64,000 nucleotides of DNA, taken from an uncultured Gammaproteobacteria bacterium. GTDB taxonomy: Bacteria; Pseudomonadota; Gammaproteobacteria; GCA-001735895. Below, piece after piece: positions 39,319-60,586 of the stretch. The DNA lies in the NCBI GenBank assembly GCA_964651385.1, contig CAZYYM010000005.1, forward strand, positions 13,836 to 77,835. The letters are read 5' to 3'. The notes below the pieces were generated by a model, which worked only from the letters and a program-made list of their open reading frames with translations, was not told where the DNA came from and ran no database searches. How positions within the stretch are numbered: the first letter of the stretch is position 1; each line of letters begins with the position of its first letter. Position numbers and translations under genes: made by a program.

Positions 39319-41058
39319 ATGATGGTTCGTGCGATGACTAAACTGACCTTACTAGAGCGACGTTTACGGATTGTCACTGGTTTGATATTGTCGGTTTATA
39401 TCGTTTTTCACCTTTTTAATCATACGCTTGGGTTGGTATCTCTGGACGCTATGGAAGCCATGCGCAAAGCGATCACGCCATTTTGGCGTAGCTGGTTTGG
39501 CGGTTTATTAATATACGGCTCATTGCTTACTCACCTGGCGTTGGCGCTCATGTCCTTATACCGTCGTAGCAGTTTGCGCATGCCGGCCTGGGAAATGGCG
39601 CAATTGATACTCGGGTTATCGATTGTCCCACTCCTCGCCGGGCATATTTCGGCCACCTGGGGCGCCAGGGTTTTATTGAATTTTAATCCGAATTACGATT
39701 TTGCACTCACTGCAATTTTAAGTAGTCCCTGGTTAAGCACCAAACAGTTATTACTGATAATCGTTGTCTGGTTACATGTCGTCGTCGGCCTGCATTTTTA
39801 CTTTCGGCTGTTTAGATTTTATCGTCGCAAGGCGATTCATTTATATCCATTCGTTGTGATATTGCCTGCACTGGTGATATTTTCAATTGTACGAGTAGGT
39901 CTCGATATAGGCGTTTGGAATTCGACACCGTCAAAAGTCGCCAAACATCCTCTGGGGGGCTATGTCGGTGCCGAACCGACTTACCTGGAGGGCACACCGC
40001 TTAATATTATCCTGCACCACGGTATCCTCGTTGTGTTTTTCAGCTTGTTATCGTTAGTACTGATTGCGCGGTTGCTAAGGGCAAAGCGCCAGCTGACCCA
40101 CGGCAATGTAGTTATCAAACATTTAAATGGTCGTGAATTCAAAGGCGTACCGGGACAGACGATTCTGGAGGTGCTGCGCCTGCATTCGATACCACATGCT
40201 TCGTTATGCGGTGGTCGGGGCCGTTGCACCACCTGCCGCGTACGGGTTGGCGCCGGGGCAAAGCTATTGCATAAGCCTTCAGCGCTGGAACAGTTTGCGC
40301 TCGACCGAATCGGTGCCGCGCCCAATGTTCGCCTGGCCTGCCAGACGCGTCCCGGACATCCGTTGCAAATCAGTCCGCTGGTGCCGGCCGATCTCGACAT
40401 CGAAAATAGCTTGAGAAAGGGGGGTGTCAGCGGCGATGAGCGAGAAGTCGTCGCTATGTTTGTCGATTTACGCGGTTCCTCCAGCATTAGTGAGGGGCAT
40501 TTACCTTATGATGTGCTATTTATTTTGAATCAGTTTTTTCTGGAGATGGCGGATGCGTTAAGCGACAGCTTCGGCCATTACGCACAATTCGAAGGCGATG
40601 GCTTATTGGCGCTCTACGGTTTAAAACGGGGCATGAAAACCGGATGTATCGACGCATTGAAAGGAGCGATTGATATGCAACGACGTATGAATCAACTCAA
40701 TGATAAACTCAGCGGTGAGCTGCAAGAACCCCTTAATTTCGGTATCGGCATTCACTGTGGCCAGGCGATTGTAGGCAGTATGGGGCCGCCCACAACACCA
40801 AACTATTCGGCGATTGGCGATTGCATTAATGCCGCTGCCAGACTGGAAAATATGTCAAAGGAACTGGAATGTGTGCTGGTCGTCTCGGATGATGTGATAA
40901 AGCACACGGGCTCCGATTTCAATGTTTTTGAAAGCCAGATTGTGCGTTTGCGAGGAAAGCAACAATCAGTCCTGGTCTATGCCATAGAGAATCCGCTGGA
41001 TATTAAACTGACAGTTGTCGAATCGCTTCAGGATGACCAGTTTTCACCTGCGGTATAA
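39319..41058 (+). CDS. Class III nucleotide cyclase with a His-rich membrane domain and a 2Fe-2S ferredoxin domain (CyaC-like)
   Basis: TM helices carrying His (FHLFNH, LTHL, AGHI, WLHV), CGGRGRCTTC...RLAC, FVDLRGS, GDG, NAAARLE. True start may be ATG 39334. Confidence 0.88.
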   Translation: MMVRAMTKLTLLERRLRIVTGLILSVYIVFHLFNHTLGLVSLDAMEAMRKAITPFWRSWFGGLLIYGSLLTHLALALMSLYRRSSLRMPAWEMAQLILGLSIVPLLAGHISATWGARVLLNFNPNYDFALTAILSSPWLSTKQLLLIIVVWLHVVVGLHFYFRLFRFYRRKAIHLYPFVVILPALVIFSIVRVGLDIGVWNSTPSKVAKHPLGGYVGAEPTYLEGTPLNIILHHGILVVFFSLLSLVLIARLLRAKRQLTHGNVVIKHLNGREFKGVPGQTILEVLRLHSIPHASLCGGRGRCTTCRVRVGAGAKLLHKPSALEQFALDRIGAAPNVRLACQTRPGHPLQISPLVPADLDIENSLRKGGVSGDEREVVAMFVDLRGSSSISEGHLPYDVLFILNQFFLEMADALSDSFGHYAQFEGDGLLALYGLKRGMKTGCIDALKGAIDMQRRMNQLNDKLSGELQEPLNFGIGIHCGQAIVGSMGPPTTPNYSAIGDCINAAARLENMSKELECVLVVSDDVIKHTGSDFNVFESQIVRLRGKQQSVLVYAIENPLDIKLTVVESLQDDQFSPAV

Positions 41059-41594: not shown

Positions 41595-41621
41595 TAAAGA
41601 AAATGATTGAGCTACCGAGAT
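41595..41621 (+). promoter_or_regulatory. Candidate sigma-28 (FliA) promoter for the MCP gene
   Basis: TAAA-N15-ACCGAGAT versus TAAA-N15-GCCGATAA, ~30 nt before ATG 41651. Confidence 0.35.
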
Positions 41622-41650
41622 ATACTTATATCTCAATTTTTGGCCAGCCT

Positions 41651-42880
41651 ATGAAGCATATACAACTCGGGCACAATTTTAGATGGGTTTATTTACTGCT
41701 GCTTTTAGCGTTAATAGTTCTTGATGTACTGGATATATTCCCTCCCTATTCAAATTACCTGCTTATTCTTTGCGGTATTCTATTGCTTGTTGAACAATTT
41801 TGGGACGACAGGAAACGCAATCGCATCAAAACGGAAAGTACACAAGTTAAAATGTCCGTCGATTTGCAAATGGACGAATACAAACGTCTGACCGAAGAAG
41901 TTCTTACGGGTAGCAATCGACAGTTTTCCAGGTTACGCGATGACTTGACACAGGCCCAGGGAATCGTCGACAGTGCGGCTTCCAAACTTGGCGGCAGTTT
42001 AACCGGTTTAGAAGCTCAAAGTCATGGACAGAAACAGATGCTTAAAGAACTCGTCGAGGAACTTTTAGATTTGGCGGAAAGTGAGGAGCACGAACTTCAA
42101 ACCATTAACCTGAATCGATTTGCAAACGAAACAAAGCAGGTCATTGATGATTTTGTCGAGACCGTTACCGGATTAAAAAACAGTGGCGAGGTGATTTCCA
42201 CGAAGTTCAGCAAAATGCGAAATCGAGTGGAAGAAGTAACCAAAATACTGGCTGACGTCGACGCGATTACAAGTCAAACAGACTTGTTGGCCCTGAATGC
42301 TGCTATTGAAGCCGCCCGGGCAGGTGAAGCGGGTAGAGGCTTTGCAGTCGTAGCCGACGAAGTAAGGGAGCTCGCAAAAAAAACCAGTAGCTTTAGTAAT
42401 ACCATCGTGTCCTTACTTAAGGATATTAACACTACGATCGAACAGCTGGATGGTGCCGTAGAAGACGCATCTTCTACTGATCTGGACAGGATCAGTGTCT
42501 CGAGCGCTGATGTCGACCTAATGTGGGATGAGATGCGAGGGGTAAACGACAAGGCTGCGGCCCAGTCAGTTCGGATAACGGAAATTTCCGAAACCATGCA
42601 TCGGTTGGTCATGGAAGGTGTTTTATCGTTGCAGTTCGAAGATATCGTTCGCCAACATATTGATAATATAGCGGATCGCTCCCGCTACCTTGAAGAATAT
42701 GTGACCCAGTTCCTTGCTGCCCATATTGAAACTGAATCGAGTGGCCTTAGCCGATTTGAAGATCGTAATAATCATCTTATTGAATTAATTGAAAATGCCG
42801 ATAACAATTTCAATCAGATTTCCTCAAAGGCAATAACGCAAACAGGCGTTGAAGACGGTGGCGGAGCAGAATTTTTTTAA
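41651..42880 (+). CDS. Methyl-accepting chemotaxis protein without an obvious ligand-binding domain
   Basis: Hairpin tip [31 protein letters not shown]; two adjacent N-terminal TM segments. Start moved to ATG 41651 (ORF track gives 41603). Confidence 0.88.
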
Positions 42881-42962: not shown

Positions 42963-43355
42963 TTATAGCAGCGCGAACGACTCGGGTAATTTACAAAAAT
43001 AGGCAATTCGTTCACTTAACACACCAGTGTCGCCAACCTTAATTACTGCACTGCCCTGTAACGGAGTTCCTCTGGCTTGCCACCAGCACCAGACTGTGGC
43101 GGGTAAATCATCGTCCTTAATTATCATATCACTATAGTCCAGAAAGGGATTGGCATTTACTTCACCGCCCATACTAACAGCGACGGCTGTAAAATCATTG
43201 ACAAAATTAACAAACTCGGCACGTTTAATCCTGCCTGTATTCGGATCATCGTAATAAAAGCCTTCGGCGGTGGCGCTCAAACTGAGTTCGCCATCACCGA
43301 TTTTCCAGCCGTTCAAATAGGTTTGGATAGACTTGCTGATCGTTTCAGCTGTCAT
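42963..43355 (-). CDS. NTF2/SnoaL-like protein
   Basis: YLNGW..GDG......AEGFYYDDP and C-terminal SERIAY pattern. Start moved to ATG 43355, overlapping the cupin gene by 11 nt. Confidence 0.65.
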   Translation of the reverse strand: MTAETISKSIQTYLNGWKIGDGELSLSATAEGFYYDDPNTGRIKRAEFVNFVNDFTAVAVSMGGEVNANPFLDYSDMIIKDDDLPATVWCWWQARGTPLQGSAVIKVGDTGVLSERIAYFCKLPESFALL

Positions 43356-43749
43356 AAGGCGCAGGCATTTCATCGGCATCGATACCGGGTACGTGGGTGA
43401 TACCCGCACGTTGTTTCCAGTCTACCGGATAAGCCGAATAAAAAATGACGCATTTATCGTCACACTCGTAAATGACATGATTGTCCTTGGGTACAAACAT
43501 CAAGTCACCGGGATTTAGCTCGTAGTTGACACTGTCAACTACCAGGCGGAAAGTGCCTTTGAGGCAGTAGATGAGTTCGTCGCAGGTTAAATCCCATGGC
43601 ACCGAAATTTTATTCAACGCGTTGATGCCGCCACACATGCTATTACTAATTTCGGTGGTGACAAAAGGTTTGATAAATGTGCCGTTTTCGGGCAGATTGT
43701 CGATTCGATCCTGAATGTCGGCGATTCTAAATACACTGGGTGCTGTCAT
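43345..43749 (-). CDS. EutQ-like cupin
   Basis: SMCGG, WDLTCDELIYCLKG, LNPGDLMFVPK, FYSAYPVDW; RBS GAGG. Confidence 0.8.
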   Translation of the reverse strand: MTAPSVFRIADIQDRIDNLPENGTFIKPFVTTEISNSMCGGINALNKISVPWDLTCDELIYCLKGTFRLVVDSVNYELNPGDLMFVPKDNHVIYECDDKCVIFYSAYPVDWKQRAGITHVPGIDADEMPAPYDS

Positions 43750-43773
43750 GTTTATTCCTCGTTTAGTGGTAGA

Positions 43774-44778
43774 TTATTCAAGTAGTTCCGCGATTGTGCT
43801 ATCGAGGAAATGTTCAAATTCAGGGCTATTGCCAGGCGATGCAACACAGTGCCCCCAGGGTGATTCGAAGACTCGAAGCTCGCCATTATTAATGTGTTCA
43901 ATCTCAATCTGGTTATCTTCGACGCGAAAGTACAGGTCGTGGTTGCAAACAATCACAATGGTTCTGGCTTTAATCGCTTTCAAAGCCGCCTGGAAATCAC
44001 CGCCATAAGCAGGTTGCGCACTGATGTCACCCAGTTGCCAGGTTTTTAATTTGCACAGCAGGTCGTTGGCATCCCAGTCGAGATGATCCTGTTCCCAGTC
44101 CTGTAGCAAAGCCTCCGCAGTATCGAAGCCCTTAAGCTTATACAAATGCTCGCGGTAAAAGGTTTGCGAAAAGGCCCAGCCCGCATAAATTCGCCCGAAA
44201 GCTTTCAGGCCCTTGACCGGTGGTGTCAGGTAATTTCCGTCGTCATAAACGGCGTCCGCCTGCAAAGCCGCTTTGACGCCTTCGAGGAACACTATATTGT
44301 GTTCGGCTGTTTTTGCCGATGCACAGAATGGCAGAATAGCTTTAACCATATCAGGATACTGCGCCGCCCATTGAAACGACTGGCAACCCGCCATTGACCA
44401 GCCCGCCACCAGTGCAATCTGTTCGACACCGAGCTGCTCGGTTAATAGCAGATGCTGCGCTTTGATATTGTCAAATAGCGTTATGTCCGGGAATCGCGGC
44501 CCATCGAAAGGCGCCGGGGTATTGCTTGGCGAAGACGAAATGCCATTGCCGAACAGATTCACCGAGACGATGAAATGCCGATCCGGGTCAATCGCACGAC
44601 CCGGGCCGAAGAAGCCTTCATTGCGGCCATGGCTGCCGGTATAAAACGTCGGCAGGACAACAACATTATCTGCTGCCTGGTTTAAGGCACCATAGGTTTT
44701 GTAGGCCAGCTTCAGCTCGGGCAGGACAATTCCCGACTGAAGCCGAAATTCGTGCAGATTAAAGCTGTCGTAATCCAC
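43774..44778 (-). CDS. Alpha/beta hydrolase of the homoserine-O-acetyltransferase (MetX) fold
   Basis: FRLQSG..L..L.LAYKTYG.LN, NLFGNG.SSSPS, nucleophile GWSMAG, acid HDLYF, His PWGH. Start moved to GTG 44778. Confidence 0.85.
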   Translation of the reverse strand: MDYDSFNLHEFRLQSGIVLPELKLAYKTYGALNQAADNVVVLPTFYTGSHGRNEGFFGPGRAIDPDRHFIVSVNLFGNGISSSPSNTPAPFDGPRFPDITLFDNIKAQHLLLTEQLGVEQIALVAGWSMAGCQSFQWAAQYPDMVKAILPFCASAKTAEHNIVFLEGVKAALQADAVYDDGNYLTPPVKGLKAFGRIYAGWAFSQTFYREHLYKLKGFDTAEALLQDWEQDHLDWDANDLLCKLKTWQLGDISAQPAYGGDFQAALKAIKARTIVIVCNHDLYFRVEDNQIEIEHINNGELRVFESPWGHCVASPGNSPEFEHFLDSTIAELLE

Positions 44779-44786
44779 CGAAAGGC

Positions 44787-46205
44787 CTAGTATAGACGCA
44801 AATATTCCTGCACTTCCCAGTCCGTCACGGTCTGGTGATAACGCTCCCATTCGTCGACTTTATAGGCCAGAAAAGAGCGGTGCATGGCCTCTCCCATGAC
44901 CGCTTTGGCCATCTCGTCGTTTCTCAATGCCTCGGTAGCCACCATCAGGTTTCGTGGCAGCCGACGAATTCCATGTTCTTTCAACTGTTCGTCGGTCATT
45001 TCGTAGAGGTCGAAATCGGTCGGTTTGCCCGGATCGATTTTATTATTAATGCCTTCAATTGAAGCAGTCAGCGTCATCGCCAGACCCAGATAGACATTCA
45101 TACACATATCCGCGGCTCGGTTTTCGATGCAATAGCGGCTTTGTGGCAGGCGGAACTGCGCCGAGCGATTGTTATAGCCATAAGTGATATTGGTCGGCGC
45201 CCAGGTCACCGTACCGCCTTCGAAACCACCGACTTTCGGCACCAGGCCGTTATAGGAATTCACCGTCGAACAGGCAATTGCGGTTATGGCTTCAGAATGT
45301 GCCATTAAACCCCCGACCGCGTGCGCGGATTCGGCGGACCAGCCGTTTTTGTCCGAGCCGAAAATATTCACTCCCGGATTATCTACCGATTGCATTGAAA
45401 AATTAATATGTGCGCCCGAACGCCAGTCTCCGGTAGTCGGTTTCGGCATAAAGGTGATAAACATACCGTGCTCCTTGGCTATTTCTTTCAACAAAATTCG
45501 CAGGAAAACCAGGCGATCGGCCATTTCCAGCAAAGTGGTGTAGTGAAAGTCGAGTTCAAACTGCGAATAGGCACCCTCGGCGACGACATCGTGGATGTTC
45601 CAGCCCAGGTCCTCGAGGATGTCGATCATATCTTTCAGGAATGGCATCGAATCGATCGAGTACTCGACATCATAGCCGAAGGCCTGACGCCGCGGCTTGA
45701 TGCCGTTTTCAGGGTCATCTTCGATCGCCTTGACGGGCTGGCCAGCGTCGTTATAACGCATCGCGATGAATTCCGGTTCGATACCGGCATAACCGACATA
45801 GCCTGCGGCCTCACTATCTCGCATCGCGCGTTTCAACGCCTGCCTGGGGCAAACGTTATAGGGCTTATCCTCCCAGAACAGATCGGCAAAAATAATCGCC
45901 ATCGACTTGTCCCAGGGGCAGATATAAACCGCGTCGAGGTCGGGCACCATGACCTGATCCGAATCGGCTGGCGAGAGTTCCGGCACAAATGAAATCGAAT
46001 GCACTGCGAACTGCGGCCCTTTGCCCATACACAGCAGCTCAAAATCGCTCATCGGCACCGGTTTTGTCTTCGGGATACCGAACAGGTCTATCCAGCTCGA
46101 TAGTACGTATTTGACACCGGCGTCTTCGAGTTCCTTGCGAACTTCGGCTATTCGCTCGGCAGTCGGCAGGGCATCGGCAAAATTTTCATAATAAGTGCTG
46201 CTCAT
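44787..46205 (-). CDS. Glutamine synthetase-like ligase (GmaS/GlnT-related, atypical pocket)
   Basis: WIDLFG, GIEPEF, AEG..SQFE, FMPKP, H of SGAH, NNRSAQFRLP, IENRAAD; strong RBS GGAGG. Confidence 0.9.
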   Translation of the reverse strand: MSSTYYENFADALPTAERIAEVRKELEDAGVKYVLSSWIDLFGIPKTKPVPMSDFELLCMGKGPQFAVHSISFVPELSPADSDQVMVPDLDAVYICPWDKSMAIIFADLFWEDKPYNVCPRQALKRAMRDSEAAGYVGYAGIEPEFIAMRYNDAGQPVKAIEDDPENGIKPRRQAFGYDVEYSIDSMPFLKDMIDILEDLGWNIHDVVAEGAYSQFELDFHYTTLLEMADRLVFLRILLKEIAKEHGMFITFMPKPTTGDWRSGAHINFSMQSVDNPGVNIFGSDKNGWSAESAHAVGGLMAHSEAITAIACSTVNSYNGLVPKVGGFEGGTVTWAPTNITYGYNNRSAQFRLPQSRYCIENRAADMCMNVYLGLAMTLTASIEGINNKIDPGKPTDFDLYEMTDEQLKEHGIRRLPRNLMVATEALRNDEMAKAVMGEAMHRSFLAYKVDEWERYHQTVTDWEVQEYLRLY

Positions 46206-46226
46206 CGGTTTTTTCCTCCCGGGGTT

Positions 46227-46739
46227 TCAGGTGCTCTGCCGCTTCAGCAGAAATTGATTTTTGAACATCTCGATACCGGTCATGACTTCGAGATCGGCAA
46301 TATCGTCACTGCCATAGCAATGCTGTTCCAGAAACCTCTGGAATGATTCGCTGGAATCGCAAACTACCTCAATGAGTAAGTCGTAACGCCCGGAAACCCA
46401 GAGCACATAGACCACCTCGGTATACTGTGAAAGTCTTTCCGCCACCGCACGTGGAGCTGTTGGCGAGGCCACCTTAATACCGATCATCGCATCGGCCTTA
46501 TAACGAATCGCCATCGGATCAGCCAGCGCAACAATCTTCAGCAGGCCGTTTTTTTTCATCGCCTGCACACGATTGCGGATGGTGCCTTCGGATACCTTCA
46601 GGGTTCGTGCGACGTCTTTGTAAGCCATGCGCCCATCGTCCTGAAGCAACTTGATAATCGATTGGTTCAGCTCATCGACCGGGGAATCGATACTGCGCGA
46701 CTTACTGCTGGATATCGAAACCGGGGCATTTACCGTCAT
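46227..46739 (-). CDS. Lrp/AsnC family transcriptional regulator
   Basis: IIKLLQDDGRMAYKDVARTLKVSEGTIRNRV, VSGRYDLLIEV. Confidence 0.92.
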   Translation of the reverse strand: MTVNAPVSISSSKSRSIDSPVDELNQSIIKLLQDDGRMAYKDVARTLKVSEGTIRNRVQAMKKNGLLKIVALADPMAIRYKADAMIGIKVASPTAPRAVAERLSQYTEVVYVLWVSGRYDLLIEVVCDSSESFQRFLEQHCYGSDDIADLEVMTGIEMFKNQFLLKRQST

Positions 46740-46913
46740 AGAGTATTGAGTTTTATGCTTTGTTTTGCCGAATTATTGATGATAATGATAATATTAGCAA
46801 GATTTATTAACGAAAACGCAATCTGCTGCGAAAAAGGCTACGCGATACGAAAATTCTATGATAATTTATCGATACCTAATAAGACCTTCAATCGCTTTAC
46901 GGAATCTATGCTT

Positions 46914-48038
46914 ATGAACCAGATTTTGGATGCGTCCTTATTCAAAGAATTCGATCAGCCCTTCGGGCTCTCCCACGGATTGCCCGGCTCGGCATATACC
47001 AGTCCGACATTCAATCAGCTCGAAAATGAGCGAATATTCTCGCGTAGCTGGGTCTTCGTCGGCTTTGCGCACGAACTGCCCAATAGCGGCGACGTGGTGC
47101 CGATTAACATCGCAGGCCTGCCGCTGTTTTTGCTACGTAATGACAATGGCGAAATAGCGGCGTTTCACAATGTGTGTCGACATCGCAACCTGCAGATCAT
47201 CGATAAACCCGCCAATTGTGGGAAAATTATCCGTTGCCCTTACCATAGCTGGAGTTACGACCTCCGTGGCCAGCTAAAGAATGCGCCCTATTTCGGCGGC
47301 GGTGCGAAAGACCTGCCTGCAGGCTTCAATCTCGAGAATAACGGTTTAATGCCGGTTAACATTGCGGTCTGGCACGACTGGATATTCCTCAACCTCGCCG
47401 AAGAACCTCGCGCCTTCGAGCATTTCATCGCGCCGCTAAAAACTGCACTGGGTGACAACGATGTCAGCCAGTATGTCCCCGTTACCACGGTTCAAATGGG
47501 CACAGTAAAGTGCAACTGGAAGTTACTAATGGAAAACTTTATCGAGCCCTATCACGTGCAGTTCGTGCATAAGACCACCACCGAGCAACCACTGCAAGAT
47601 CACTACCCCGTTATCGAAGGCGACTGCCTCGGCAGTGCCGTCGACCTCAGCGAAGAACAGATGGCGGCAGCAAGGTCTGATACCCTCGGAGTCTCGTCGA
47701 AATACCTGACGCTATTCCCTAACTTCGTCATGGGAACCTATCATCCGGACCAGGTCGGTGTTCATCTGAATACACCGATTGATGGGGAAACAACCCTGCA
47801 ACGTCGTGTTATTTACCTGCACAAAGATGCCGGTTATAGTGACGAACAGATTCAGGGCCTGCACGACCTGTGGCACAGTGTTCACCTCGAAGACCACGAA
47901 ATGTGCCAGCGACTACAGCAGGGCCGCCACTCGCCGCTGGCACAACAGGGCGGTGTGTTATCGCCGCACTGGGAAACCAGCGTACGAAAATTTCAGGAAC
48001 TGGTCGCCAACGCCGTGCGACCGGGCCTAAGTCAATAA
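46914..48038 (+). CDS. Rieske non-heme iron oxygenase alpha subunit (choline/carnitine monooxygenase-like group)
   Basis: CRH...CPYH Rieske motif, ENFIEPYHVQFVH iron ligands, ED..C..LQQG..S. Start moved to ATG 46914 (46908 also possible). Confidence 0.92.
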   Translation: MNQILDASLFKEFDQPFGLSHGLPGSAYTSPTFNQLENERIFSRSWVFVGFAHELPNSGDVVPINIAGLPLFLLRNDNGEIAAFHNVCRHRNLQIIDKPANCGKIIRCPYHSWSYDLRGQLKNAPYFGGGAKDLPAGFNLENNGLMPVNIAVWHDWIFLNLAEEPRAFEHFIAPLKTALGDNDVSQYVPVTTVQMGTVKCNWKLLMENFIEPYHVQFVHKTTTEQPLQDHYPVIEGDCLGSAVDLSEEQMAAARSDTLGVSSKYLTLFPNFVMGTYHPDQVGVHLNTPIDGETTLQRRVIYLHKDAGYSDEQIQGLHDLWHSVHLEDHEMCQRLQQGRHSPLAQQGGVLSPHWETSVRKFQELVANAVRPGLSQ

Positions 48039-48052
48039 ATTGAGGAAAACCA

Positions 48053-48472
48053 ATGAACGAAGCCGCCAGCAAACCCGATTTTCGCCTCGATCACACAATG
48101 ATCCGTGTTTTAGACCAGGGGAAAACTATCGACTTTTACACCCGTATTCTGGGGATGAAAATTTTGCGCCAGAATGAATATCCTGACGGTCGTTATACCA
48201 ATACCTTCGTCGGCTATCAGGGCGAAGACGATGGCACCACCATCGAAATGACCTACAACTGGGATCAGCAAGAACCCTACGACATGGGTAATGCCTGGGG
48301 ACATTTCGCGTTGAAGGTATCGGACGTCTACGCAACGGCGGAATATCTCAAATCGGAAGGTGTCGAGTTCGTGCGAGAAGCAGGGCCGATGAATGCAGGG
48401 ACGCGTATTATTGCGTTCTTCAAAGATCCGAATGGTTATGTCATCGAATTGAATGAGCCGTTGTCGAATTAG
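48053..48472 (+). CDS. gloA: Lactoylglutathione lyase (glyoxalase I)-like VOC protein
   Basis: HTMIRV, FYT.ILGMK, IEMTYNW, GHFAL, FFKDPNGY.IEL. Confidence 0.82.
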   Translation: MNEAASKPDFRLDHTMIRVLDQGKTIDFYTRILGMKILRQNEYPDGRYTNTFVGYQGEDDGTTIEMTYNWDQQEPYDMGNAWGHFALKVSDVYATAEYLKSEGVEFVREAGPMNAGTRIIAFFKDPNGYVIELNEPLSN

Positions 48473-48547: not shown

Positions 48548-49012
48548 ATGAATATGAAAATTATACTAACCATTATACCGGGCCTCATGATTATGGCATT
48601 TGCTGGATTATTTTACCTTGGTCGCATATCGCAGTCTGGTGATGCACGGGGGCTGGTCGAGGCAAAACTAGCAAAGTGCCCAGAAAAACCGAACTGTATT
48701 TGTACCGAGTTTCCATCTGATATCAGCCATTACATGACGCCGATAGACTTATCGCAAACGGGTCTCAGGGATGTGCGGGTAAAATTAAAAACTGTTGTAG
48801 ATAAAACGGGTGGCAGCATACGGGCAGAAGATGACAATTATCTGGTCGCAACATTTACATCGTCGATATTCGGCTTTGTCGATGATTTAGAATTCAGGAT
48901 AGATGCCGATCAAAAGCTGATCCAGCTGCGCTCGGCGTCGAGAGTCGGTTATAGCGATCGGGGAGTCAACAGGAAAAGAGTGGCACAAATTAAAATGTTA
49001 TTCAATCAATAG
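48548..49012 (+). CDS. DUF1499 family protein
   Basis: LAKCPEKPNCICT, FGFVDDLEF, IQLRSASRVGYSDRGVNRKRV. Confidence 0.88.
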   Translation: MNMKIILTIIPGLMIMAFAGLFYLGRISQSGDARGLVEAKLAKCPEKPNCICTEFPSDISHYMTPIDLSQTGLRDVRVKLKTVVDKTGGSIRAEDDNYLVATFTSSIFGFVDDLEFRIDADQKLIQLRSASRVGYSDRGVNRKRVAQIKMLFNQ

Positions 49013-49019
49013 CGTTCGA

Positions 49020-49484
49020 TCAAACGTAGTCCAGTGGCAGTACTGTGGTATTTTTCAACTCTTCCATCGCGAAGTGGGAACTGATTTCGAATATGTCTAC
49101 CCTGCTGATCAGTTTCTTGTAAACTGCGTCGAAAGCACCAATCGTAGGTGCTACTATTTTTAACAGGTAATCTACCTCACCACTCATTCGATAATATTCG
49201 ATTATTTCTGGAATGTTGTCGATTACCGAGGTGAATTGCTTCAGCCATTGGGTGTTGTGCTGGTTAGTGCGTATATTCATGAACACAATCACCTGTAAAT
49301 TTAGACGCTTGCGGTCGAGAAGCGCCACTCGGGATCGAATGATGCCTGATTCCTGCATTCTTTGAATTCGACGCCAACAGGGGTTTTTGCTCAAACCTAC
49401 CTGGTCAGCGAGATTAACCAGCGATTGATCTGAGTTTCTCTGGAGATGCTCGAGAATATGTCTGTCAATTTTATCTAGCTTCAT
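49020..49484 (-). CDS. Lrp/AsnC family regulator (DecR/YbaO-like)
   Basis: LDKIDRHIL, VGLSKNPCWRRIQRM, YRMSGEVDYLLKIV, SSHFAME. Confidence 0.9.
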   Translation of the reverse strand: MKLDKIDRHILEHLQRNSDQSLVNLADQVGLSKNPCWRRIQRMQESGIIRSRVALLDRKRLNLQVIVFMNIRTNQHNTQWLKQFTSVIDNIPEIIEYYRMSGEVDYLLKIVAPTIGAFDAVYKKLISRVDIFEISSHFAMEELKNTTVLPLDYV

Positions 49485-50110: not shown

Positions 50111-50620
50111 TTGCGCACTACACAGCCCGTAATAACAGAAAACAAAACCATTCTGGTCACTGGTTCTTCAACCGGCATTGGCAAGTGCGTTGCCCATGGG
50201 TTACACCAACGCGGCTACCGAGTCTTCGCGAGTGTCCGCAATGCGGATGATATAGCCGCTAATACAAAGGCAGGGATGGACAGTCTATTGCTCGACTACA
50301 ATGATTCGGCAAGCATCAAGATGGCGGTCGAAAGTCGATTTCGTGAAAATGCTTATCGTGCATTTCAGCAGCACATAGTGGTTGATAACAGCATTCATCG
50401 TCAACGCTATCAAAAAATGATCCAGCGATTTAAAGCCAGCGGGAAGGCACAGCCGTTTACGTTGCCACCGCAAGCCGTACTCAAGTGTGTGGTACACGCG
50501 CTGGAGAGTAAACGACCAAAGATACGCTACCCAGTCACTTTCCCGACTTACCTGTTTGGCTTGTTAAAGCGTGTTATGAGTGATCGGATGCTGGACAGGG
50601 TTCTGAGGAGGGTTGGCTAA
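50111..50620 (+). pseudogene. SDR oxidoreductase (YbbO-like) with a large in-frame internal deletion
   Basis: N-terminal TGSSTGIG and C-terminal RFRENA...RYPVTFPT are present. NNAG, the catalytic Ser, YxxxK and IEPGP are absent. Junction at ~50327-50335. Confidence 0.75.
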
Positions 50621-50867: not shown

Positions 50868-53432
50868 TCAGGACCGCGGCAATTTATTCTCTGGATCAAA
50901 TAATGGCTTATAACCAACCGACTCGACCTTCATCGTAAATTGCTCGCCGAGATATTCGGTAACCATTTCGCGTCCTTCCTGACAATACTCGTAGGGTAGA
51001 TAGCCCAGCCCGATATTTTTAGCAATGCTCGGGCCGTAGGCGATGCTGCTTAAATACGAACGACGGCCTTTTGAATCAACCGGTACCTCGCCGGTTTCCG
51101 GGTCCATCAATGGGCACTGGCCGACCGGGAAACGTGCAATACCGTTGGAATCAATATTGTCTGTCATCGACAGTGTGCACAGATAGGCTGCCTGATGTTC
51201 GAGTTCACGCTGCTCGAGGTAAGGCGCTTTACCGTGGAAATCCGCTTGCTTGACCACCGGGCGTGCGAGACCGGCTTCGTAAAGGTTGTACTCGGTCAAC
51301 AGGTCGGCATTTTGCAGACGCAGGCTTTTTTCCATGCGTCGGCTGTTGGCGTAAGTTTCGATGCCGACTGGTGTCGCACCCTGTGCGTAGACCAGATCCC
51401 ATAGTGACATGCCGTAACTGAATGGCACATGTAGTTCCCAGCCCTGTTCGCCGACGTAAGAAATGCGGAAAGCTTCGACCGGGATGCCCTTGAGCGTGAG
51501 GTTTCGGGTTGCAGCAAACGGGAAGTTTGCGTCCTCCCACGCGGCAGAGTCGTCAGCAATTGCCTGTATGGTCTTGCGCGCATTCGGTCCCCAGACGCCA
51601 AGGCAGGCCATGTGATCGGAACGGTCATCGATATAGACGTTCCAGCCGTTGTCTTCGGCCATGCGCTTGAGCCAGATAAAATCACGGTTGCCTGCATCGG
51701 CACCATCGATGACGCGGAAGCGGTCCTTGGCGTGACGAATCACCGTGAGGTCTGCGCGTACGCCGCCACGCTTGTCGAGAAAGTGCGTGTAGACGCCTTT
51801 GCCAATCGGTGTGTCTCCACCGACCCTGGCAACACAAGTATATTCCATCAGCGCTTCGGCGTCGGGGCCTAATACATCATAGACGGCGAAATGCGAAAGG
51901 TTGATCATGCCGACGTTTTCAGACATTGCCAATTGCTCGGCGTTGGATACACGCCAGAAATGTCGGTTGTCCCACTCGTGCTCGCGTAGCGGCGCCTTGT
52001 CACCGTATTTTTCCAGTAGGTGTTCGTTGGAGGCGTAGCCGTGCGCGCGTTCCCAGCCCGATAGTTCCATGAAATATCCGCCTAATTCCTGCTCTCGCGC
52101 CCAGAATGGGCTGCGGCGCAAGTTACGCCCTTTGCTATAAGGCTCGCGGTTATGCACGGCCGGGTTGTAAATCTTGAATGCTGATTCGTAGCAGCGATCG
52201 TATATATACGTTGGTGTTTTCTGAATCGGGTAGTGGCGCGCGGTGTCGATACCGAAGAAATCCATCTCGGCGACGCCGTCAGTCATCCAGTCTACCAGTA
52301 CCTTGGCAATGCCCGGTGCGTCTTTGACCCATATTGCGATTGCGTACCAGAGGCCACGGGTTAGCGTCGATTCGCCGACTGATGGACCGCCATCGGTGGT
52401 TACCTGCAGCAGGCCGTTAAACGAATGTTTCTCGTTATAACCGAGTTCACCAAGAATCGGAGTCAGTTCCATGGCACGCTCCAGCGGTTCCATGATCTGT
52501 TCGAGTTCGAGATCGCGCTGTGACGGCGACCAATGGGTTTCGCCCGCTTCGGGAAGATTGCGCGGGTGTAGCAGGCGCGGTTCTTTTTCTTCGTAATAAC
52601 CCCACTCTATTTGACCGCCTTCCGGAGTTTTCGGGTCGCCGGTATCGCGCATATAAGCCGAATTGCCCTGATCCCGCAGCAGTGGATAGCCGATATCCTT
52701 GCCAGTACCCTCGAATTCTGTATAGGGGGCGAAGAATGTGAGTGGATGATCGACTGGCATGACTGGAAGGTCCTCGCCGGCCATCTCAGCGATGGTGCGC
52801 CCCCACAATCCCGTGCAGACGATGACGTAATTGGCAGCGATATAGCCGCGGCTGGTTTCGACACCGACGATACGGCCCTCCTGAATGTCGAGGCCGGTTG
52901 CTGCGGTATTGGCAAAAGACTGTGCTTTGCCGGTTTTAACCGCGTTTTCAACCAGAATGCCGGCGACTGTTTGCGAGCGGGGTTTTACCAGTCCCGCATC
53001 CGGATCCCACATTGCGCCCTGGATCATGTCTTCTTCCAGTAAGGGAAACTTTTCCTTGGCTTGTGCAGCGCTAATCATTTCCACATTGGTGCCAAAGGCT
53101 TTTCCCGAAGCGACCTTGCGCTTGAGTTCCATCATGCGGTCCTCGTCGTCCTTACGCGCCACTTCGAGCCCGCCAACTCGGTCGTAGTGGCCCATCTTGT
53201 CGAAGAATTTGATGCTGTAACCAGTTGTGTAGCAGACGAACTTGCTGTGATCGGTGGCGTAGCAGAAATCGGAGGCGTGCGAAGTGGATCCGACATCGGT
53301 CGGAACTGACGCTTTATCGATACCGACAATATCGTCCCAGCCACGTTCGACCAGGTGATGCATCACCGAGGAGCCGACGATACCACCGAGGCCTATAATA
53401 ACGACGTTGGATTGCTTTGGAAATTGTGCCAT
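50868..53432 (-). CDS. GcvT-family FAD-dependent N-demethylase (dimethylglycine dehydrogenase/oxidase-like)
   Basis: IIGLGGIVG, GSTSHA (position of the covalent-FAD His), THF-binding GcvT domain (ISYVGEQGWELH, RMEK), C-terminal barrel. Start moved to ATG 53432. Confidence 0.88.
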   Translation of the reverse strand: MAQFPKQSNVVIIGLGGIVGSSVMHHLVERGWDDIVGIDKASVPTDVGSTSHASDFCYATDHSKFVCYTTGYSIKFFDKMGHYDRVGGLEVARKDDEDRMMELKRKVASGKAFGTNVEMISAAQAKEKFPLLEEDMIQGAMWDPDAGLVKPRSQTVAGILVENAVKTGKAQSFANTAATGLDIQEGRIVGVETSRGYIAANYVIVCTGLWGRTIAEMAGEDLPVMPVDHPLTFFAPYTEFEGTGKDIGYPLLRDQGNSAYMRDTGDPKTPEGGQIEWGYYEEKEPRLLHPRNLPEAGETHWSPSQRDLELEQIMEPLERAMELTPILGELGYNEKHSFNGLLQVTTDGGPSVGESTLTRGLWYAIAIWVKDAPGIAKVLVDWMTDGVAEMDFFGIDTARHYPIQKTPTYIYDRCYESAFKIYNPAVHNREPYSKGRNLRRSPFWAREQELGGYFMELSGWERAHGYASNEHLLEKYGDKAPLREHEWDNRHFWRVSNAEQLAMSENVGMINLSHFAVYDVLGPDAEALMEYTCVARVGGDTPIGKGVYTHFLDKRGGVRADLTVIRHAKDRFRVIDGADAGNRDFIWLKRMAEDNGWNVYIDDRSDHMACLGVWGPNARKTIQAIADDSAAWEDANFPFAATRNLTLKGIPVEAFRISYVGEQGWELHVPFSYGMSLWDLVYAQGATPVGIETYANSRRMEKSLRLQNADLLTEYNLYEAGLARPVVKQADFHGKAPYLEQRELEHQAAYLCTLSMTDNIDSNGIARFPVGQCPLMDPETGEVPVDSKGRRSYLSSIAYGPSIAKNIGLGYLPYEYCQEGREMVTEYLGEQFTMKVESVGYKPLFDPENKLPRS

Positions 53433-53553
53433 GGTTTTTTCTCCCAATGACCGCCGGTCTCGGCCGACGCGGCTGTATAGGTGTCGAAATTTTGTGAAAA
53501 GGCAGTATAAACACCCCGTTTTAACTTCTCCAATAGATTTAGATCATGAAGTC

Positions 53554-53576
53554 GCGACATCGTTTAATTGTGTCGC
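53554..53576. promoter_or_regulatory. Inverted repeat GCGACA-N11-TGTCGC, candidate operator
   Basis: Perfect 6-bp inverted repeat in the divergent dehydrogenase/etfBA intergenic region. Confidence 0.4.
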
Positions 53577-53750
53577 ATCTGATCAATTGCAAATGCTTGA
53601 TTCCACATGAAATGTCGATAAAATACTCGGCCTCCTTTATATCAGTACGGGATTTTCGGGACCGGGTCGGATTATCGTTTATCCGGTATTTTGAATAGCT
53701 ATAGCGATCTGGATTTTCAGCTGAGATTGCTACTACGAGACATTGCGAGC

Positions 53751-54500
53751 ATGAAAATACTAGTTTGTGTGAAGCGCGTCCTCGACCCCCAGGTCAAGGC
53801 GCGTGTTAAAGCGGATGGGTCTGGAGTCGACCTGGCAAATGCCAAGATGACCATGAACCCGTTTGATGAAAACGCGCTTGAAGAAGCCCTGCGTCTGCGT
53901 GAAGCCGGTACGGGTGATGAAATTGTTGTGGTTTCGATCGGTGCAGGTAAGACCGAAGAGACATTACGACATGGACTTGCCATGGGTGCAGATCGTGCGA
54001 TTAACGTGGTTACCGAGCAAGCGCTCGAGCCATTAGCGATTGCCAAGGTGTTGAAGGCTATCGTTGATCAGGAGCAGCCTGGTCTGGTACTTGCTGGCAA
54101 ACAGGCGATTGACGATGACTCGAACCAAACCGCGCAAATGCTTTCAGCATTACTCGGCTGGTCTCAGAGTACATTTATTTCTGATCTAAAAATCGACGGT
54201 GATACTGCGACCACCATTCGCGAAGTTGACGCCGGCCTAGAAACAATTACCGTAAAAATGCCGACGGTAATCAGCGTCGATTTACGTTTGAACGAACCGC
54301 GTTACGTAAAGTTACCCGACGTAATGAAAGCCAAACGCAAGCCAATGGATAAGATCGATCTTGATAGTCTCGGTCTCGATACTGCCAATCGTATGACAAC
54401 AATTCTGGTTGAAGAGCCGGAAGGTCGGGTTGCCGGCGTTATTGTTGAAAGCGTCAGCGAACTGGTCGATAAACTGCGTAACGAAGCGAAGGTAATTTAG
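53751..54500 (+). CDS. etfB: Electron transfer flavoprotein beta subunit
   Basis: MKILVCVKRV.D, MNPFDE.ALEEA, GKQAIDDD, NEPRY. Start moved to ATG 53751. Confidence 0.95.
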   Translation: MKILVCVKRVLDPQVKARVKADGSGVDLANAKMTMNPFDENALEEALRLREAGTGDEIVVVSIGAGKTEETLRHGLAMGADRAINVVTEQALEPLAIAKVLKAIVDQEQPGLVLAGKQAIDDDSNQTAQMLSALLGWSQSTFISDLKIDGDTATTIREVDAGLETITVKMPTVISVDLRLNEPRYVKLPDVMKAKRKPMDKIDLDSLGLDTANRMTTILVEEPEGRVAGVIVESVSELVDKLRNEAKVI

Positions 54501-54502
54501 TC

Positions 54503-55432
54503 ATGAGTAATTTAGTCATAGTCGAACACGACAATAAAGAAGTCGCCGCTGCTACCCTACACGCTGTCACGGCGGCTCAACAGATTGGCGGAGATATTGA
54601 TTTGCTCGTAGCCGGTGAAAATTGTGGAGCCGTTGCTGACGCCGCTGCAAGGATTGCCGGAGTATCTAAAGTCAGCGTAGCGGACGATGCCAAATTCGGT
54701 CATCACATGGCTGAAAATCTGGCATTGTTGATCGTCGAAGTTGCCGGTGATTACAGTCACGTACTGGCTTCGGCTACTACATTCGGCAAAAACGTCATGC
54801 CGCGCGCATCAGCGTTGCTGGATAAGGCACAGATTTCTGAAATCGTCGAAATTAAATCGCCCGATACTTTTGTCCGCCCGATTTATGCAGGGAACGCACT
54901 AGCCACCGTTCAGTCTTCGGATTCGATCAAAATGATTACCGTTCGCACCATCAAGTTCGAAGCAGCAGCTGCTGAAGGTGGTTCAGCCAGCATCGAAGCA
55001 ATGGGCGGTGGGGCTGACAGCGGATTGTCTAGTTGGATATCAGAAGCCGGTTCCAACACCGACCAGGTTGATCTGACTTCGGCCAAAATCGTTGTGTCCG
55101 GTGGTCGTGGTATGCAAAACGGTGATAACTTTGCCATGCTGCATTCTGTGGCGTCCAAACTGGGTGCAGCAGTCGGTGCCTCACGAGCTGCGGTTGATTC
55201 GGGATTTGTGCCGAACGATTTTCAGGTCGGTCAAACCGGTAAGGTTATCGCGCCTGATTTGTACATCGCGGTCGGTATTTCCGGTGCGATCCAGCATCTG
55301 GCCGGAATGAAAGAATCGAAAGTGATTGTTGCGATCAATAACGACAGCGAAGCACCGATTTTTCAGGTCGCCGATTACGGCCTGGTTGCCGACTTGTTTG
55401 AAGCGGTTCCGGAATTAGACGCTGCGCTTTGA
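54503..55432 (+). CDS. etfA: Electron transfer flavoprotein alpha subunit
   Basis: [42 protein letters not shown]. Confidence 0.96.
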
Positions 55433-55438
55433 TCCAAA

Positions 55439-55508
55439 GGGCGCAATGACCGACAGGGATGGTGGGGATAGGTTAGGATTACAGGAATAAACAATGCACA
55501 TTGCGCCC
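55439..55508. repeat. 10-bp perfect inverted repeat enclosing a 50-nt GGA-rich spacer
   Basis: GGGCGCAATG (55439-55448) and CATTGCGCCC (55499-55508), between the convergent etfA and cyclase genes. Confidence 0.7.
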
Positions 55509-55521
55509 CGATACAAATGGC

Positions 55522-56898: not shown

Positions 56899-57094
56899 TT
56901 TCTATAAATTAGTCGACAATATGGTTATATTCTCAAAGGAGCGTACCATTTTTGGCCATGACCAGGTTTCGGCCTCGGTGCGGTCGCTTTACGCTGGTTA
57001 TTTAAACATCGCTGGCGTTGGCATATACTAATATTGTACGCTGAATGGTGCATCAAGAGATAAAACAGTTAAAATTCCTGAATAGGAATGGAGG

Positions 57095-57532: not shown

Positions 57533-57666
57533 ACGTGGTTTCGTAGCGCAGAGCAATTTATGCACCGAGGCATAATCGCCCGATACCTGTAAACGCTATT
57601 CGATCTACCGAATAGCTTCTTCTGATACGGTCGATTAACAGGAATCTATACGATAAAAATATCAAT

Positions 57667-57691
57667 AAAAAAGCCCCGCGAAAAACGGGGC
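57667..57691 (-). terminator. Rho-independent terminator downstream of the BCCT gene
   Basis: Minus strand reads GCCCCG-TTTTTCG-CGGGGC-TTTTTT. Confidence 0.7.
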
Positions 57692-57735
57692 CCAAAAACT
57701 GCAAGTTGTTGTGGCGACTTAGTCGCTGATTGTTA

Positions 57736-60558: not shown

Positions 60559-60562
60559 AGTC

Positions 60563-60586
60563 AGTGATAGTATCACTTTAAGTGAT
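60563..60586. promoter_or_regulatory. LysR-type operator with three alternating half-sites
   Basis: AGTGAT-agt-ATCACT-tta-AGTGAT. The inner TCACTTTAAGTGA is a palindromic T-N11-A motif right in front of the lysR start. Confidence 0.6.

Follow-up and report, generated by a model that had tools for sequence, protein, structure and literature searches.

The window analysed here is a stretch of 64,000 nucleotides (nt) of DNA from an uncultured Gammaproteobacteria bacterium (GTDB lineage Bacteria; Pseudomonadota; Gammaproteobacteria; GCA-001735895), which corresponds to positions 13,836 to 77,835 of the forward strand of contig CAZYYM010000005.1 in NCBI GenBank assembly GCA_964651385.1. At positions 42963-48472 it contains a module of seven open reading frames (ORFs), which includes the genes for a glutamine synthetase (GS)-like ligase, an alpha/beta hydrolase and a Rieske oxygenase. 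This module is widespread, is apparently uncharacterised, and appears to be a variation on the γ-glutamylation strategy. Its features, with boundaries taken from the DNA sequence, are as follows.

43355..42963, minus strand: gene for an NTF2/SnoaL-fold protein of 130 amino acids (aa); the start at ATG 43355 is backed by homologues
43345..43749, minus strand: EutQ-type cupin gene, 134 aa
43774..44778, minus strand: MekB/CgHle-type (MetX-fold) alpha/beta hydrolase gene, 334 aa; likely start GTG 44778
44787..46205, minus strand: GS-like ligase gene, 472 aa; stop codon TAG 44789-44787
46227..46739, minus strand: Lrp/AsnC regulator gene at the head of the minus-strand arm; start ATG 46739
46740..46907, no strand: divergent control region, AT-rich (GC 0.32), with three conserved blocks
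46908..48038, plus strand: Rieske monooxygenase gene, 376 aa; start ATG 46908 or 46914
48053..48472, plus strand: gloA, glyoxalase I gene; start ATG 48053

The seven ORFs, their coordinates and their spacings agree with those given in a first-pass annotation of the window. In the minus-strand arm, 21 nt separate the stop codon of the Lrp gene from the start codon of the ligase gene, an 8-nt gap separates the ligase stop codon from GTG 44778, and 24 nt separate the hydrolase stop codon from the cupin start codon. The NTF2-fold ORF, starting at ATG 43355, overlaps the cupin stop codon (43345) by 11 nt. GTG 44778 is the most plausible start of the hydrolase gene, because the resulting length of 334 aa fits those of the orthologues (334-343 aa). 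In the plus-strand arm, 14 nt separate the Rieske stop codon (48038) from ATG 48053 of gloA, which is preceded by a ribosome-binding site, GAGGAAAA. The spacer between ATG 46739 of the Lrp gene and the Rieske start codon is 168-174 nt long with a GC content of 0.32, close to the AT-rich divergent spacer of ~175 nt described in the first pass. This intergenic region is conserved and shared by the two arms of the module. The divergent arrangement of the Lrp and Rieske genes with an AT-rich spacer (GC 0.22-0.37) is common to 32 loci, and alignment of the spacers from five diverged loci gives three invariant blocks, GAATTATTGATGAAAAT, GAAAACGYAAT and TATGATAATTT. Promoter-like hexamers are present at 46765-46792 (plus strand) and 46800-46772 (minus strand). 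They are set aside as evidence, because a promoter and terminator consensus scan gives 13 matches, as compared with 7.9±3.4 for shuffled sequences, and thus no enrichment. Elsewhere, the window has the gene content of an ordinary chromosome, with genes such as those for YidC, MnmE, PolA, RecBCD, GatAB and MreBC. The module is not a mobile island, because its surroundings are housekeeping genes with a similar G+C content.

Profile searches support the family labels assigned earlier to the module proteins (Gln-synt_C, Abhydrolase_1, EutQ cupin, AsnC/Lrp, Rieske and glyoxalase I), and the regulator contains HTH_AsnC-type and AsnC_trans_reg domains. The ligase matches Gln-synt_C (PF00120) with an E value of 2.4e-85. 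It scores below the cutoffs of the models for GlnA type I (TIGR00653; 300.5 bits, cutoff 429.15) and GmaS/type III (TIGR03105; 355.8 bits, cutoff 469.6), and far below that of the γ-glutamylputrescine synthetase equivalog (196.9 bits, cutoff 650). Its best matches in the PDB are the GmaS structures 9qur (2.7e-70) and 7cql (7e-60). The active-site residues of RhGmaS (PMC7948447) were mapped to the ligase through the HMMER alignment, with correction for the 20-residue tag of chain 7cql. The position of Asp50' of GS is occupied by Ala67, as in GmaS, and this residue is kept in the orthologues, in agreement with the earlier assignment of the protein as a GS-like ligase that acts on an amine and not as a glutamine synthetase. 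The ligase retains GmaS-type Tyr178, Glu210, Glu217, Lys48', Trp335 and Arg347, among which Glu217 and Arg347 correspond to Glu186 and Arg312 of GmaS. The catalytic base of GmaS, Asp177, is replaced by Val208, and Gln175 and Asn188 are replaced by Asp206 and Asp219. The pocket residues Ala67, Asp206, Val208 and Asp219, which are unlike those of GS and GmaS, are conserved among the orthologues. Glu143, Glu145, Glu210, Glu217, His266, Arg347, Arg352 and Arg363 are invariant in 81 sequences, indicating that the ATP, metal and glutamate ligands are intact. The family is discrete: in a library clustered at 50% identity, its nearest full-length representatives are 55% and 43% identical, and the following ones are below 40%. 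Because Asp50' is replaced by Ala67, Asp177 is replaced by Val208 and the scores are below the cutoffs, the protein is predicted to be an amine ligase with a pocket unlike that of GmaS, and to be neither GmaS nor a true GS. As a paralogue it matches GmaS structures at ~1e-70, and gmaS surveys made by BLAST at e-50 (PMC5520151) may include this family.

The hydrolase passes the cutoff of NCBIfam PRK07581 (437.5 bits, cutoff 332), and falls below that of the MetX equivalog TIGR01392 (155.6 bits, cutoff 500). It matches MekB (PDB 5e4y, 2.8e-60) and 5d6o (2.5e-55), and resembles the acetyl esterases MekB and CgHle. The motifs of its Ser-Asp-His triad, GWSMAG, DLYF and GH, are invariant in 67 orthologues. 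None of the module proteins contains a class-I glutamine amidotransferase (GATase) domain, and the hydrolase itself is assigned to Abhydrolase_1/PRK07581. This agrees with the first-pass proposal of an alpha/beta-hydrolase in place of a GATase.

The Rieske protein has Rieske and Ring_hydroxyl_A domains and belongs to the alpha-only group that includes Stc2, GbcA, CntA and 'choline monooxygenase'. No Ring_hydroxyl_B β subunit is found among the module proteins scanned with Pfam. Its PDB matches are Stc2 (3vca and 4qup, ~1e-28) and CntA (6y8j, 1e-24), and its orthologues are labelled 'choline monooxygenase' by JGI; both results are in line with the choline monooxygenase/CntA-type oxygenase named in the first pass. 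It scores 143.3 bits against the GbcA equivalog NF058607, below the cutoff of 670, and this alignment is confined to the N-terminal half. The motifs CXH-X17-CXXH and E-x-Y-H-x4-H and the C-terminal Asp align with those of the stachydrine demethylase Stc2, and the C-terminal catalytic half as a whole aligns poorly with characterised relatives. GloA scores 138 bits against TIGR00068 and passes the cutoff of 120. It matches E. coli GlxI (1f9z, 1.2e-35) and maize GLX1 (1.1e-57), and the His/Glu/His/Glu metal-ligand positions of this short, Ni/Co-type protein are conserved in a residue-by-residue comparison with maize GLX1. GloA is therefore a bona fide glyoxalase I (lactoylglutathione lyase), which makes it plausible that it disposes of an oxoaldehyde product of the Rieske protein, as the first pass proposed.

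The cupin matches Pfam EutQ (PF06249) with 7e-14 and 52.3 bits (cutoff 21), and EutQ in the PDB (4axo, 6e-12). It scores 37.4 bits against the EutQ equivalog NF012001 (cutoff 193), so that the match is at the domain level only, and it appears to lack the usual metal-binding histidines. Its identity is 81-93% in gammaproteobacterial loci and ~60% in SAR11. The small ORF at 42963-43355 has no Pfam match even at an E value of 10. It has 112 homologues, every one of which is named 'hypothetical', and represents an orphan family. The AlphaFold2 model of this protein (pLDDT 92.5) matches SnoaL-like, KSI and NTF2-like structures in Foldseek with a probability of 1.0 and a TM-score of ~0.6. Thus, the earlier label 'NTF2' is supported at the level of the fold, but not by Pfam. 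The protein shares the fold class of the β subunits of Rieske oxygenases, and the top 50 Foldseek matches contain no β subunits. Its gene adjoins the cupin gene in gammaproteobacterial loci and a second Rieske gene in a Mesorhizobium locus (L066).

The distribution of the module was analysed by a tblastn survey of 53 species loci, each of which extends 4 kb or more beyond the ligase gene in both directions, and by clustering of all ORFs over 80 loci. The hydrolase gene adjoins the ligase gene in 47 of the 53 loci, and an Lrp orthologue lies upstream of the ligase gene in 36. The Rieske gene is present in 28 loci and gloA in 29, so that the two track each other at a ratio of ~1:1. The cupin gene is found in 10 of the 53 loci, each of which has the Rieske gene as well, and the NTF2-fold gene in three. 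A second Rieske gene with a D-2-hydroxyacid dehydrogenase gene is found in 13 loci, five of which also carry the first Rieske gene with gloA. The conserved core therefore consists of the Lrp/AsnC regulator, the GS-like ligase and the MekB/MetX-fold hydrolase, and the other members are interchangeable. The first pass had treated the enzymes as a five-gene unit; these genes do co-occur, but the Rieske gene and gloA accompany the constant core in only about half of the loci.

More than 120 database clusters share 83-92% identity with the ligase. Two of its heptapeptides retrieve relatives from 344 species genomes, and its identity is 73-92% across more than 340 species genomes. Its carriers include SAR11, Arenicellales, Granulosicoccaceae, Thiotrichales, Rhodospirillales and roseobacters. 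Among the carriers in culture are Ruegeria sp. EL01, Mesorhizobium sp. Root552, Pelagibius sp. Alg239-R121 and Hansschlegelia beijingensis. Rieske orthologues of 63-66% identity, one of them from Cocleimonas, were obtained by an independent search, and all lie in the seven-gene layout within unrelated housekeeping contexts. Among the loci inspected, Rieske orthologues adjoin the GS cluster without exception. In SAR11 single-cell genomes, the Rieske, gloA, cupin, ligase and hydrolase genes form one operon in this order, with gaps of -8, 1, 17 and 3 nt. The arrangement of the module is far beyond chance, and a shared function is strongly supported, because the linkage outlasts rearrangement between classes. 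The gene set is thus found together in dozens of genomes across Gamma- and Alphaproteobacteria, so that the refuting condition named in the first pass, a lack of co-occurrence elsewhere, does not hold. The module ligases of metagenome-assembled genomes (MAGs) labelled Haliangium, Acidimicrobiia and Polaribacter are 81-84% identical to the gammaproteobacterial version, which suggests binning contamination or recent horizontal transfer.

The accessory modules that lie beside the core can replace one another and are of at least three kinds: the Rieske gene with gloA, the second Rieske gene with the D-2-hydroxyacid dehydrogenase gene, and a dimethylguanidine hydrolase (DmgH) set. The variant in the window is the first of these, with the cupin and NTF2-fold genes, both of which are optional members. 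A homology search of the window finds no homologue of the second Rieske protein, the D-2-hydroxyacid dehydrogenase, the ABC transporter, the agmatinase-like proteins, carnitine dehydrogenase or BKACE. The second Rieske protein is of the phthalate-dioxygenase/LigXa type (PDB 7fjl, 8e-40), and its partner, the D-2-hydroxyacid dehydrogenase, gives weak matches to D-lactate dehydrogenase and GhrA. In Mesorhizobium sp. Root552, the second-Rieske locus contains genes for a ferredoxin reductase, an NTF2-fold homologue, a genuine ProVWX transporter and a tartronate-semialdehyde reductase that scores above its equivalog cutoff. In the Arenicellales, the second Rieske and D-2-hydroxyacid dehydrogenase genes are divergent from the order Lrp-ligase-hydrolase-regulator-mgsABC-gmaS, and the true GmaS encoded there is 31% identical to the module ligase.

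The dimethylguanidine hydrolase set is found in three alphaproteobacterial loci (L068, 7225-15979; L026, 1985-7973; L033, 9389-18751) of MAGs of marine Rhodospirillales and Hyphomicrobiales. In these loci, the ligase gene is accompanied by HypA/HypB-type, urease and two tandem ureohydrolase genes. The tandem ureohydrolases match the α and β subunits of metformin/dimethylguanidine hydrolase with 7e-161 and 3e-142 respectively, are clear orthologues of this heteromeric, Ni-dependent enzyme, and are 58-84% identical among the three loci. In L068, the ligase gene lies directly downstream of the DmgH β-subunit gene. In ~12 loci, the genes of a NitT/TauT-type ABC importer separate the ligase gene from the hydrolase gene; this importer is 55-60% identical to that of the DmgH-linked operon of L033. 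In Ruegeria sp. EL01, a BCCT carrier occupies this importer position. The SAR11 operon also contains a carnitine-dehydrogenase-like gene and is adjoined by a BKACE gene; its last gene is GFA-like, as judged by a motif. Standalone pairs of ligase and hydrolase genes occur in Paracoccaceae and other groups, where the upstream neighbours are unrelated or unannotatable.

Several of these loci have further neighbours. L026 and a further locus, L009, carry a third, single ureohydrolase gene with a NicO-like nickel transporter gene. In a SAR11 single-amplified genome (L083, 2464-21020), the module lies inside a quaternary-amine gene island, which contains genes for a BetA/BetB-like GMC oxidoreductase and aldehyde dehydrogenase, an HD-domain protein, a TauD-family protein, a BBOX/TmpA-like dioxygenase, BKACE, a thioesterase, a carnitine-dehydrogenase-like protein and ProVWX. 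TRAP transporter, Usp and M24 (creatinase/ectoine-hydrolase-like) genes lie near the core in Pelagibius (L010, 478-4960), and Amidase_2 and M24 genes follow gmaS in one Arenicellales locus (L006, 17560-19298). A link to ectoine or creatine through these M24 and TRAP-Usp genes was considered and dropped, because their occurrence is too sporadic. A link to taurine or sulfonates was likewise dropped, because the binding protein matches the SsuA/TauA models weakly and desulfonation genes are not linked.

No description of the gene set is found in the open-access literature, in curated NCBIfam families or among PDB structures, in accordance with the view of the first-pass annotation that no described pathway has this set. 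As to a match with an already characterised pathway, GloA alone passes the cutoff of a curated known-pathway equivalog. The exact GS-like protein has no record in the assembly index. The module appears to follow the same protect-oxidise-release logic as known γ-glutamylation pathways, as proposed earlier, but it belongs to none of them, and none of them has a counterpart of its GloA, cupin and NTF2-fold proteins. The systems for aniline and 1-naphthylamine (AtdA1-A5, TdnQTA1A2B and NpaA1-A5) resemble it in having a GS-like ligase, an adjacent hydrolase and a Rieske oxygenase. In these systems, the Rieske oxygenase acts on the γ-glutamyl amide, and the hydrolase can reverse the ligation. However, their hydrolase has a class-I glutamine-amidotransferase fold, whereas that of the module has a MekB/MetX fold. 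Their Rieske enzyme, a ring-hydroxylating dioxygenase, has two subunits and a reductase of its own, whereas that of the module is α-only and has no reductase gene. Their substrates are aromatic amines, whereas the contexts of the module are methylamine, betaine and guanidine catabolism, and they lack the gloA, cupin and NTF2-fold genes of the module.

The N-methylglutamate (NMG) pathway (gmaS-mgsABC-mgdABCD) resembles the module in its ligase, since the nearest solved relatives of the module ligase are GmaS; both ligases lack Asp50' and share the Tyr, Glu, Glu, Lys' and Trp pocket residues. In contrast, the partners of GmaS are NMG synthase and NMG dehydrogenase, and those of the module ligase are a hydrolase and a Rieske protein. 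The PuuABCD, IpuABCDFGHI and ethanolamine pathways share with the module the protect-oxidise-release order, a GS-like ligase and a terminal γ-glutamyl-amide hydrolase. They differ from it in that their oxidising enzymes are a flavin oxidase, a P450 or dehydrogenases, in that their hydrolases are of the GATase type, and in that an aldehyde dehydrogenase is not conserved in the module. Stc2, GbcAB, CntAB and plant choline monooxygenase resemble the Rieske protein of the module in domain architecture, in both iron motifs and in the Glu of E-x-Y-H. Unlike them, however, the module lacks a GbcB/CntB-type reductase, and its Rieske gene is always linked to a GS-like ligase gene. DmgH/MefH αβ, with HypA/HypB, is linked to the ligase orthologues in the three Rhodospirillales and Hyphomicrobiales loci, but is absent from the window.

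The reading that we favour, tentatively and with somewhat less than even confidence, is that the module serves the Lrp/AsnC-controlled catabolism of a small methylated aliphatic amine and the scavenging of its nitrogen, by γ-glutamylation, the most likely amine being dimethylamine (DMA). The general γ-glutamylation mechanism is reasonably supported, and DMA as the substrate is a reasoned guess. In the first step, the ligase would use ATP to join the amine to the γ-carboxyl group of glutamate, so that DMA would be converted to N5,N5-dimethylglutamine, as its family and active site suggest. This step is taken as γ-glutamylation because all characterised Gln-synt_C enzymes of this kind, to our knowledge, ligate an amine to the γ-carboxyl group of glutamate. 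In the second step, the Rieske monooxygenase would hydroxylate the alkyl carbon adjoining the amide nitrogen. It is proposed to act on the γ-glutamyl amide because the only consistently linked oxygenases are α-only relatives of N-demethylases. Collapse of the resulting carbinolamide, possibly aided by the cupin, the NTF2-fold protein or the VOC protein, would yield the next lower amide and an aldehyde, first giving γ-glutamylmethylamide and then glutamine. Carbinolamides of such amides are expected to be relatively stable. Where the N-methylglutamate pathway is encoded next door, γ-glutamylmethylamide could feed it. A precedent is the methylguanidine system MgdH/MgdL (PMC12508155), which handles an N-methyl group borne by an electron-poor nitrogen with a hydroxylase and a lyase dedicated to the hemiaminal; its genes are absent from the window. 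In the third step, the MekB/MetX-fold serine hydrolase would cleave γ-glutamyl amides, either to release the product or as a safety valve like AtdA2/TdnT; by analogy with the aniline dioxygenase systems, it may be the safety valve rather than the release step. In the fourth step, which is the weakest, GloA would remove the aldehyde co-product with glutathione, either as a 2-oxoaldehyde or by capture as a hemithioacetal.

Four independent contexts suggest that the substrates are methylated amines: the DmgH link, the mgsABC-gmaS link, the GmaS-like Val208 pocket and the carriers that lack dmmDABC. The first pass had left the substrate as an unknown small amine; its γ-glutamylation logic stands, but these contexts indicate a methylated amine, probably DMA. 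Dimethylguanidine/metformin hydrolase releases DMA and urea (PMC11399263), and its genes directly precede the ligase gene in the three loci. In the Arenicellales, the module ligase should take an amine other than monomethylamine (MMA), for which DMA is the obvious candidate, because MMA is served there by the true GmaS. Val208 of the ligase is hydrophobic and lies at the position of the GmaS residue that contacts MMA. The genes dmmDABC are absent from all SAR11 and abundant marine Gammaproteobacteria, which have tmm, tdm and gmaS (PMC5520151). The carriers of the module coincide with SAR11 and marine Gammaproteobacteria, the groups reported to lack dmmDABC. The similarity of the NitT/TauT importer to that of the DmgH-linked L033 operon and the GFA-like gene at the end of the SAR11 operon point the same way.

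Several observations weigh against DMA as the substrate or against the proposed Rieske step. A canonical GloA at a ratio of ~1:1 with the Rieske gene argues for a 2-oxoaldehyde, but demethylation of DMA gives none. The partners of the second Rieske protein, D-2-hydroxyacid dehydrogenase and tartronate-semialdehyde reductase, suggest glyoxylate-level products rather than formaldehyde. The DmgH set is present in only three of the 53 loci, and these have no Rieske genes nearby, which would fit accessory modules that all act upstream of the ligase. No Rieske reductase (HcaD-type) or Fer2 ferredoxin gene is found in or beside the module in the window. A search of the window for reductases and ferredoxins gives a single weak match, which lies inside an unrelated cyclase fusion protein, and electron-transfer partners occur in some alphaproteobacterial loci only. 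The other linked transporters are BCCT carriers and true ProX, which normally carry quaternary amines. We know of no GS-like ligase with demonstrated activity on a secondary amine. Finally, dmmDABC is common in Paracoccaceae (PMC5520151), and Paracoccaceae also carry the ligase-hydrolase pairs.

In a more specific form, the favoured reading would make the module the missing Dmm-independent DMA pathway of SAR11 and abundant marine Gammaproteobacteria. In this pathway, DMA from demethylation of trimethylamine N-oxide or from dimethylguanidine would undergo stepwise Rieske N-demethylation as its amide, the aldehyde would be captured by a glutathione-linked VOC/GFA partner, and the nitrogen would leave as γ-glutamylmethylamide or glutamine. 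We regard this form as rather doubtful.

The oxoaldehyde version of the pathway put forward in the first pass remains a live rival, although on balance an unlikely one. Made specific here, it holds that a C2-C3 amine with an oxygenated β-carbon (aminoacetone, 1-aminopropan-2-ol, ethanolamine or aminoacetaldehyde) is γ-glutamylated, and the Rieske protein converts the amide to glutamine and methylglyoxal or glyoxal. It would act either on the carbon adjoining the amide nitrogen or, like choline monooxygenase, on the carbinol carbon. GloA would then give D-lactate or glycolate, which would be oxidised by the D-2-hydroxyacid dehydrogenase, and the hydrolase would serve for release or as a safety valve. 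This version accounts for a canonical GloA encoded 1:1 with the Rieske gene, and for the D-2-hydroxyacid dehydrogenase and tartronate-semialdehyde reductase that accompany the second Rieske protein. The EutQ-like character of the cupin is consistent with it, as is the JGI label 'choline monooxygenase', which denotes an enzyme that oxidises the carbinol of a 2-aminoethanol. It also draws on the carnitine-dehydrogenase-like gene of the SAR11 operon and the adjoining BKACE gene, since the β-keto-acid intermediate of carnitine dehydrogenase and BKACE would decarboxylate to an aminoacetone-type ketone. However, it leaves the DmgH link, the mgsABC-gmaS link and the betaine-type and NitT/TauT transporters unexplained. 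In addition, alcohol and aldehyde dehydrogenase genes are not conserved in the module, and a literature search finds no link between aminoacetone and γ-glutamylation.

It is quite unlikely, but consistent with part of the data, that the accessory modules are alternative upper pathways that free the same amine, which the ligase and hydrolase then trap as a common lower step. The Rieske protein with GloA would act like CntA and break a C-N bond in a compound of the betaine type or with a dimethylamino group, to give the amine and glyoxal or methylglyoxal. The second Rieske protein with D-2-hydroxyacid dehydrogenase would give the amine and glyoxylate, for example from dimethylglycine or sarcosine, and DmgH would give DMA and urea. 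Such an arrangement would explain why three accessory modules largely alternate beside one constant core, and the partner enzymes suit oxo co-products. The nearest characterised relatives of the Rieske protein, CntA, GbcA and Stc2, have free methylated amines as substrates. The transporters linked to the module belong to the BCCT, true ProX and NitT/TauT types, and DMGDH-like, ETF, BCCT and SoxB-like genes lie 2-13 kb away in the window. However, the γ-glutamyl amide would be left unprocessed, and the ligase and hydrolase alone would form a futile cycle. The proposed Rieske substrates, dimethylamino-acetaldehyde and dimethylamino-acetone, are not known natural nutrients, and the two Rieske genes co-occur in five loci.

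Activation of guanidine by the ligase is very improbable. The ligase would γ-glutamylate guanidine or a methylated guanidine in an ATP-dependent activation, in analogy to guanidine carboxylase, and the hydrolase would split the acylguanidine, for example to glutamine and urea, as a Ni-independent alternative to GdmH/DmgH. The ligase gene is indeed embedded in clusters of Ni-ureohydrolase and urease genes, the transporter is weakly similar to the guanidine-associated NitT/TauT transporter (TIGR03427, E value 3e-14), and the predicted amine pocket is strongly acidic (Asp206, Glu210, Glu217 and Asp219). However, no guanidine riboswitch is found in seven loci, which weakens guanidine readings in general, and most loci have no ureohydrolase or urease genes. 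The Rieske gene and gloA are unexplained by this chemistry, to which the hydrolase is also ill-suited, because serine hydrolases attack carbonyl carbons and not amidino carbons.

It is equally improbable that unrelated genes merely lie side by side, for example a choline monooxygenase gene and a housekeeping gloA beside an operon of a GS paralogue, or that the module makes a γ-glutamyl compound: gloA could be housekeeping, the reductase gene is absent and about one third of the loci have the core but no Rieske gene, but the five enzyme genes stay together in two different orders, in distant classes and in unrelated housekeeping contexts, the divergent control region is conserved, importers are inserted within the operon and the neighbouring genes are catabolic, so that chance adjacency or a biosynthetic role is unlikely.

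Among the major pools of dissolved organic nitrogen in the sea are the methylated amines, which also act as aerosol precursors. The ligase family is highly conserved and very abundant in marine metagenomes. The prevailing view is that SAR11 and many Gammaproteobacteria are unable to degrade DMA, because they lack dmmDABC (PMC5520151). A γ-glutamyl route for DMA, if true, would overturn the 'DMA bottleneck' that has been proposed for the cycling of methylated amines in the ocean, and provide a new marker gene. BLAST-based counts of gmaS may take in the module ligase as a paralogue, and part of the surveyed 'gmaS' counts would then represent a different enzyme. If the substrate is another amine, the module would still add a new type of hydrolase and a new type of Rieske protein to γ-glutamylation pathways, and would provide the first functional context for the 'hypothetical' hydrolases of PRK07581 and for the orphan NTF2-fold family.

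Several other genes of the window surround the module. A betaine/dimethylglycine/sarcosine-type catabolic neighbourhood extends over 50868-61927, starting 2.4 kb past gloA. It contains genes for an 859-aa FAD and GcvT protein (DMGDH/SARDH-like, minus strand), etfB, etfA, and genes for a cyclase, a BCCT carrier, a LysR regulator and a DAO/SoxB-like oxidase. The gene at 55522-56898 encodes a soluble protein with an adenylate/guanylate cyclase domain confirmed by Pfam. Directly downstream of gloA, at 48548-49484, are a DUF1499 gene and a gene for a second Lrp-family regulator, which are not conserved beside the module elsewhere. An ORF at 50111-50620 encodes a protein of 169 aa that resembles short-chain dehydrogenases; it has the N-terminal nucleotide-binding motif TGSSTGIG but apparently no catalytic core, which suggests a short-chain dehydrogenase gene that has decayed or suffered an internal deletion. 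On the other side of the module, the ORF at 39319-41058 encodes a 579-aa membrane protein, in which one stretch is weakly similar to 2Fe-2S ferredoxins and the C-terminus is cyclase-like by eye. A gene at 41603-42880 that resembles those for methyl-accepting chemotaxis proteins converges on the module.

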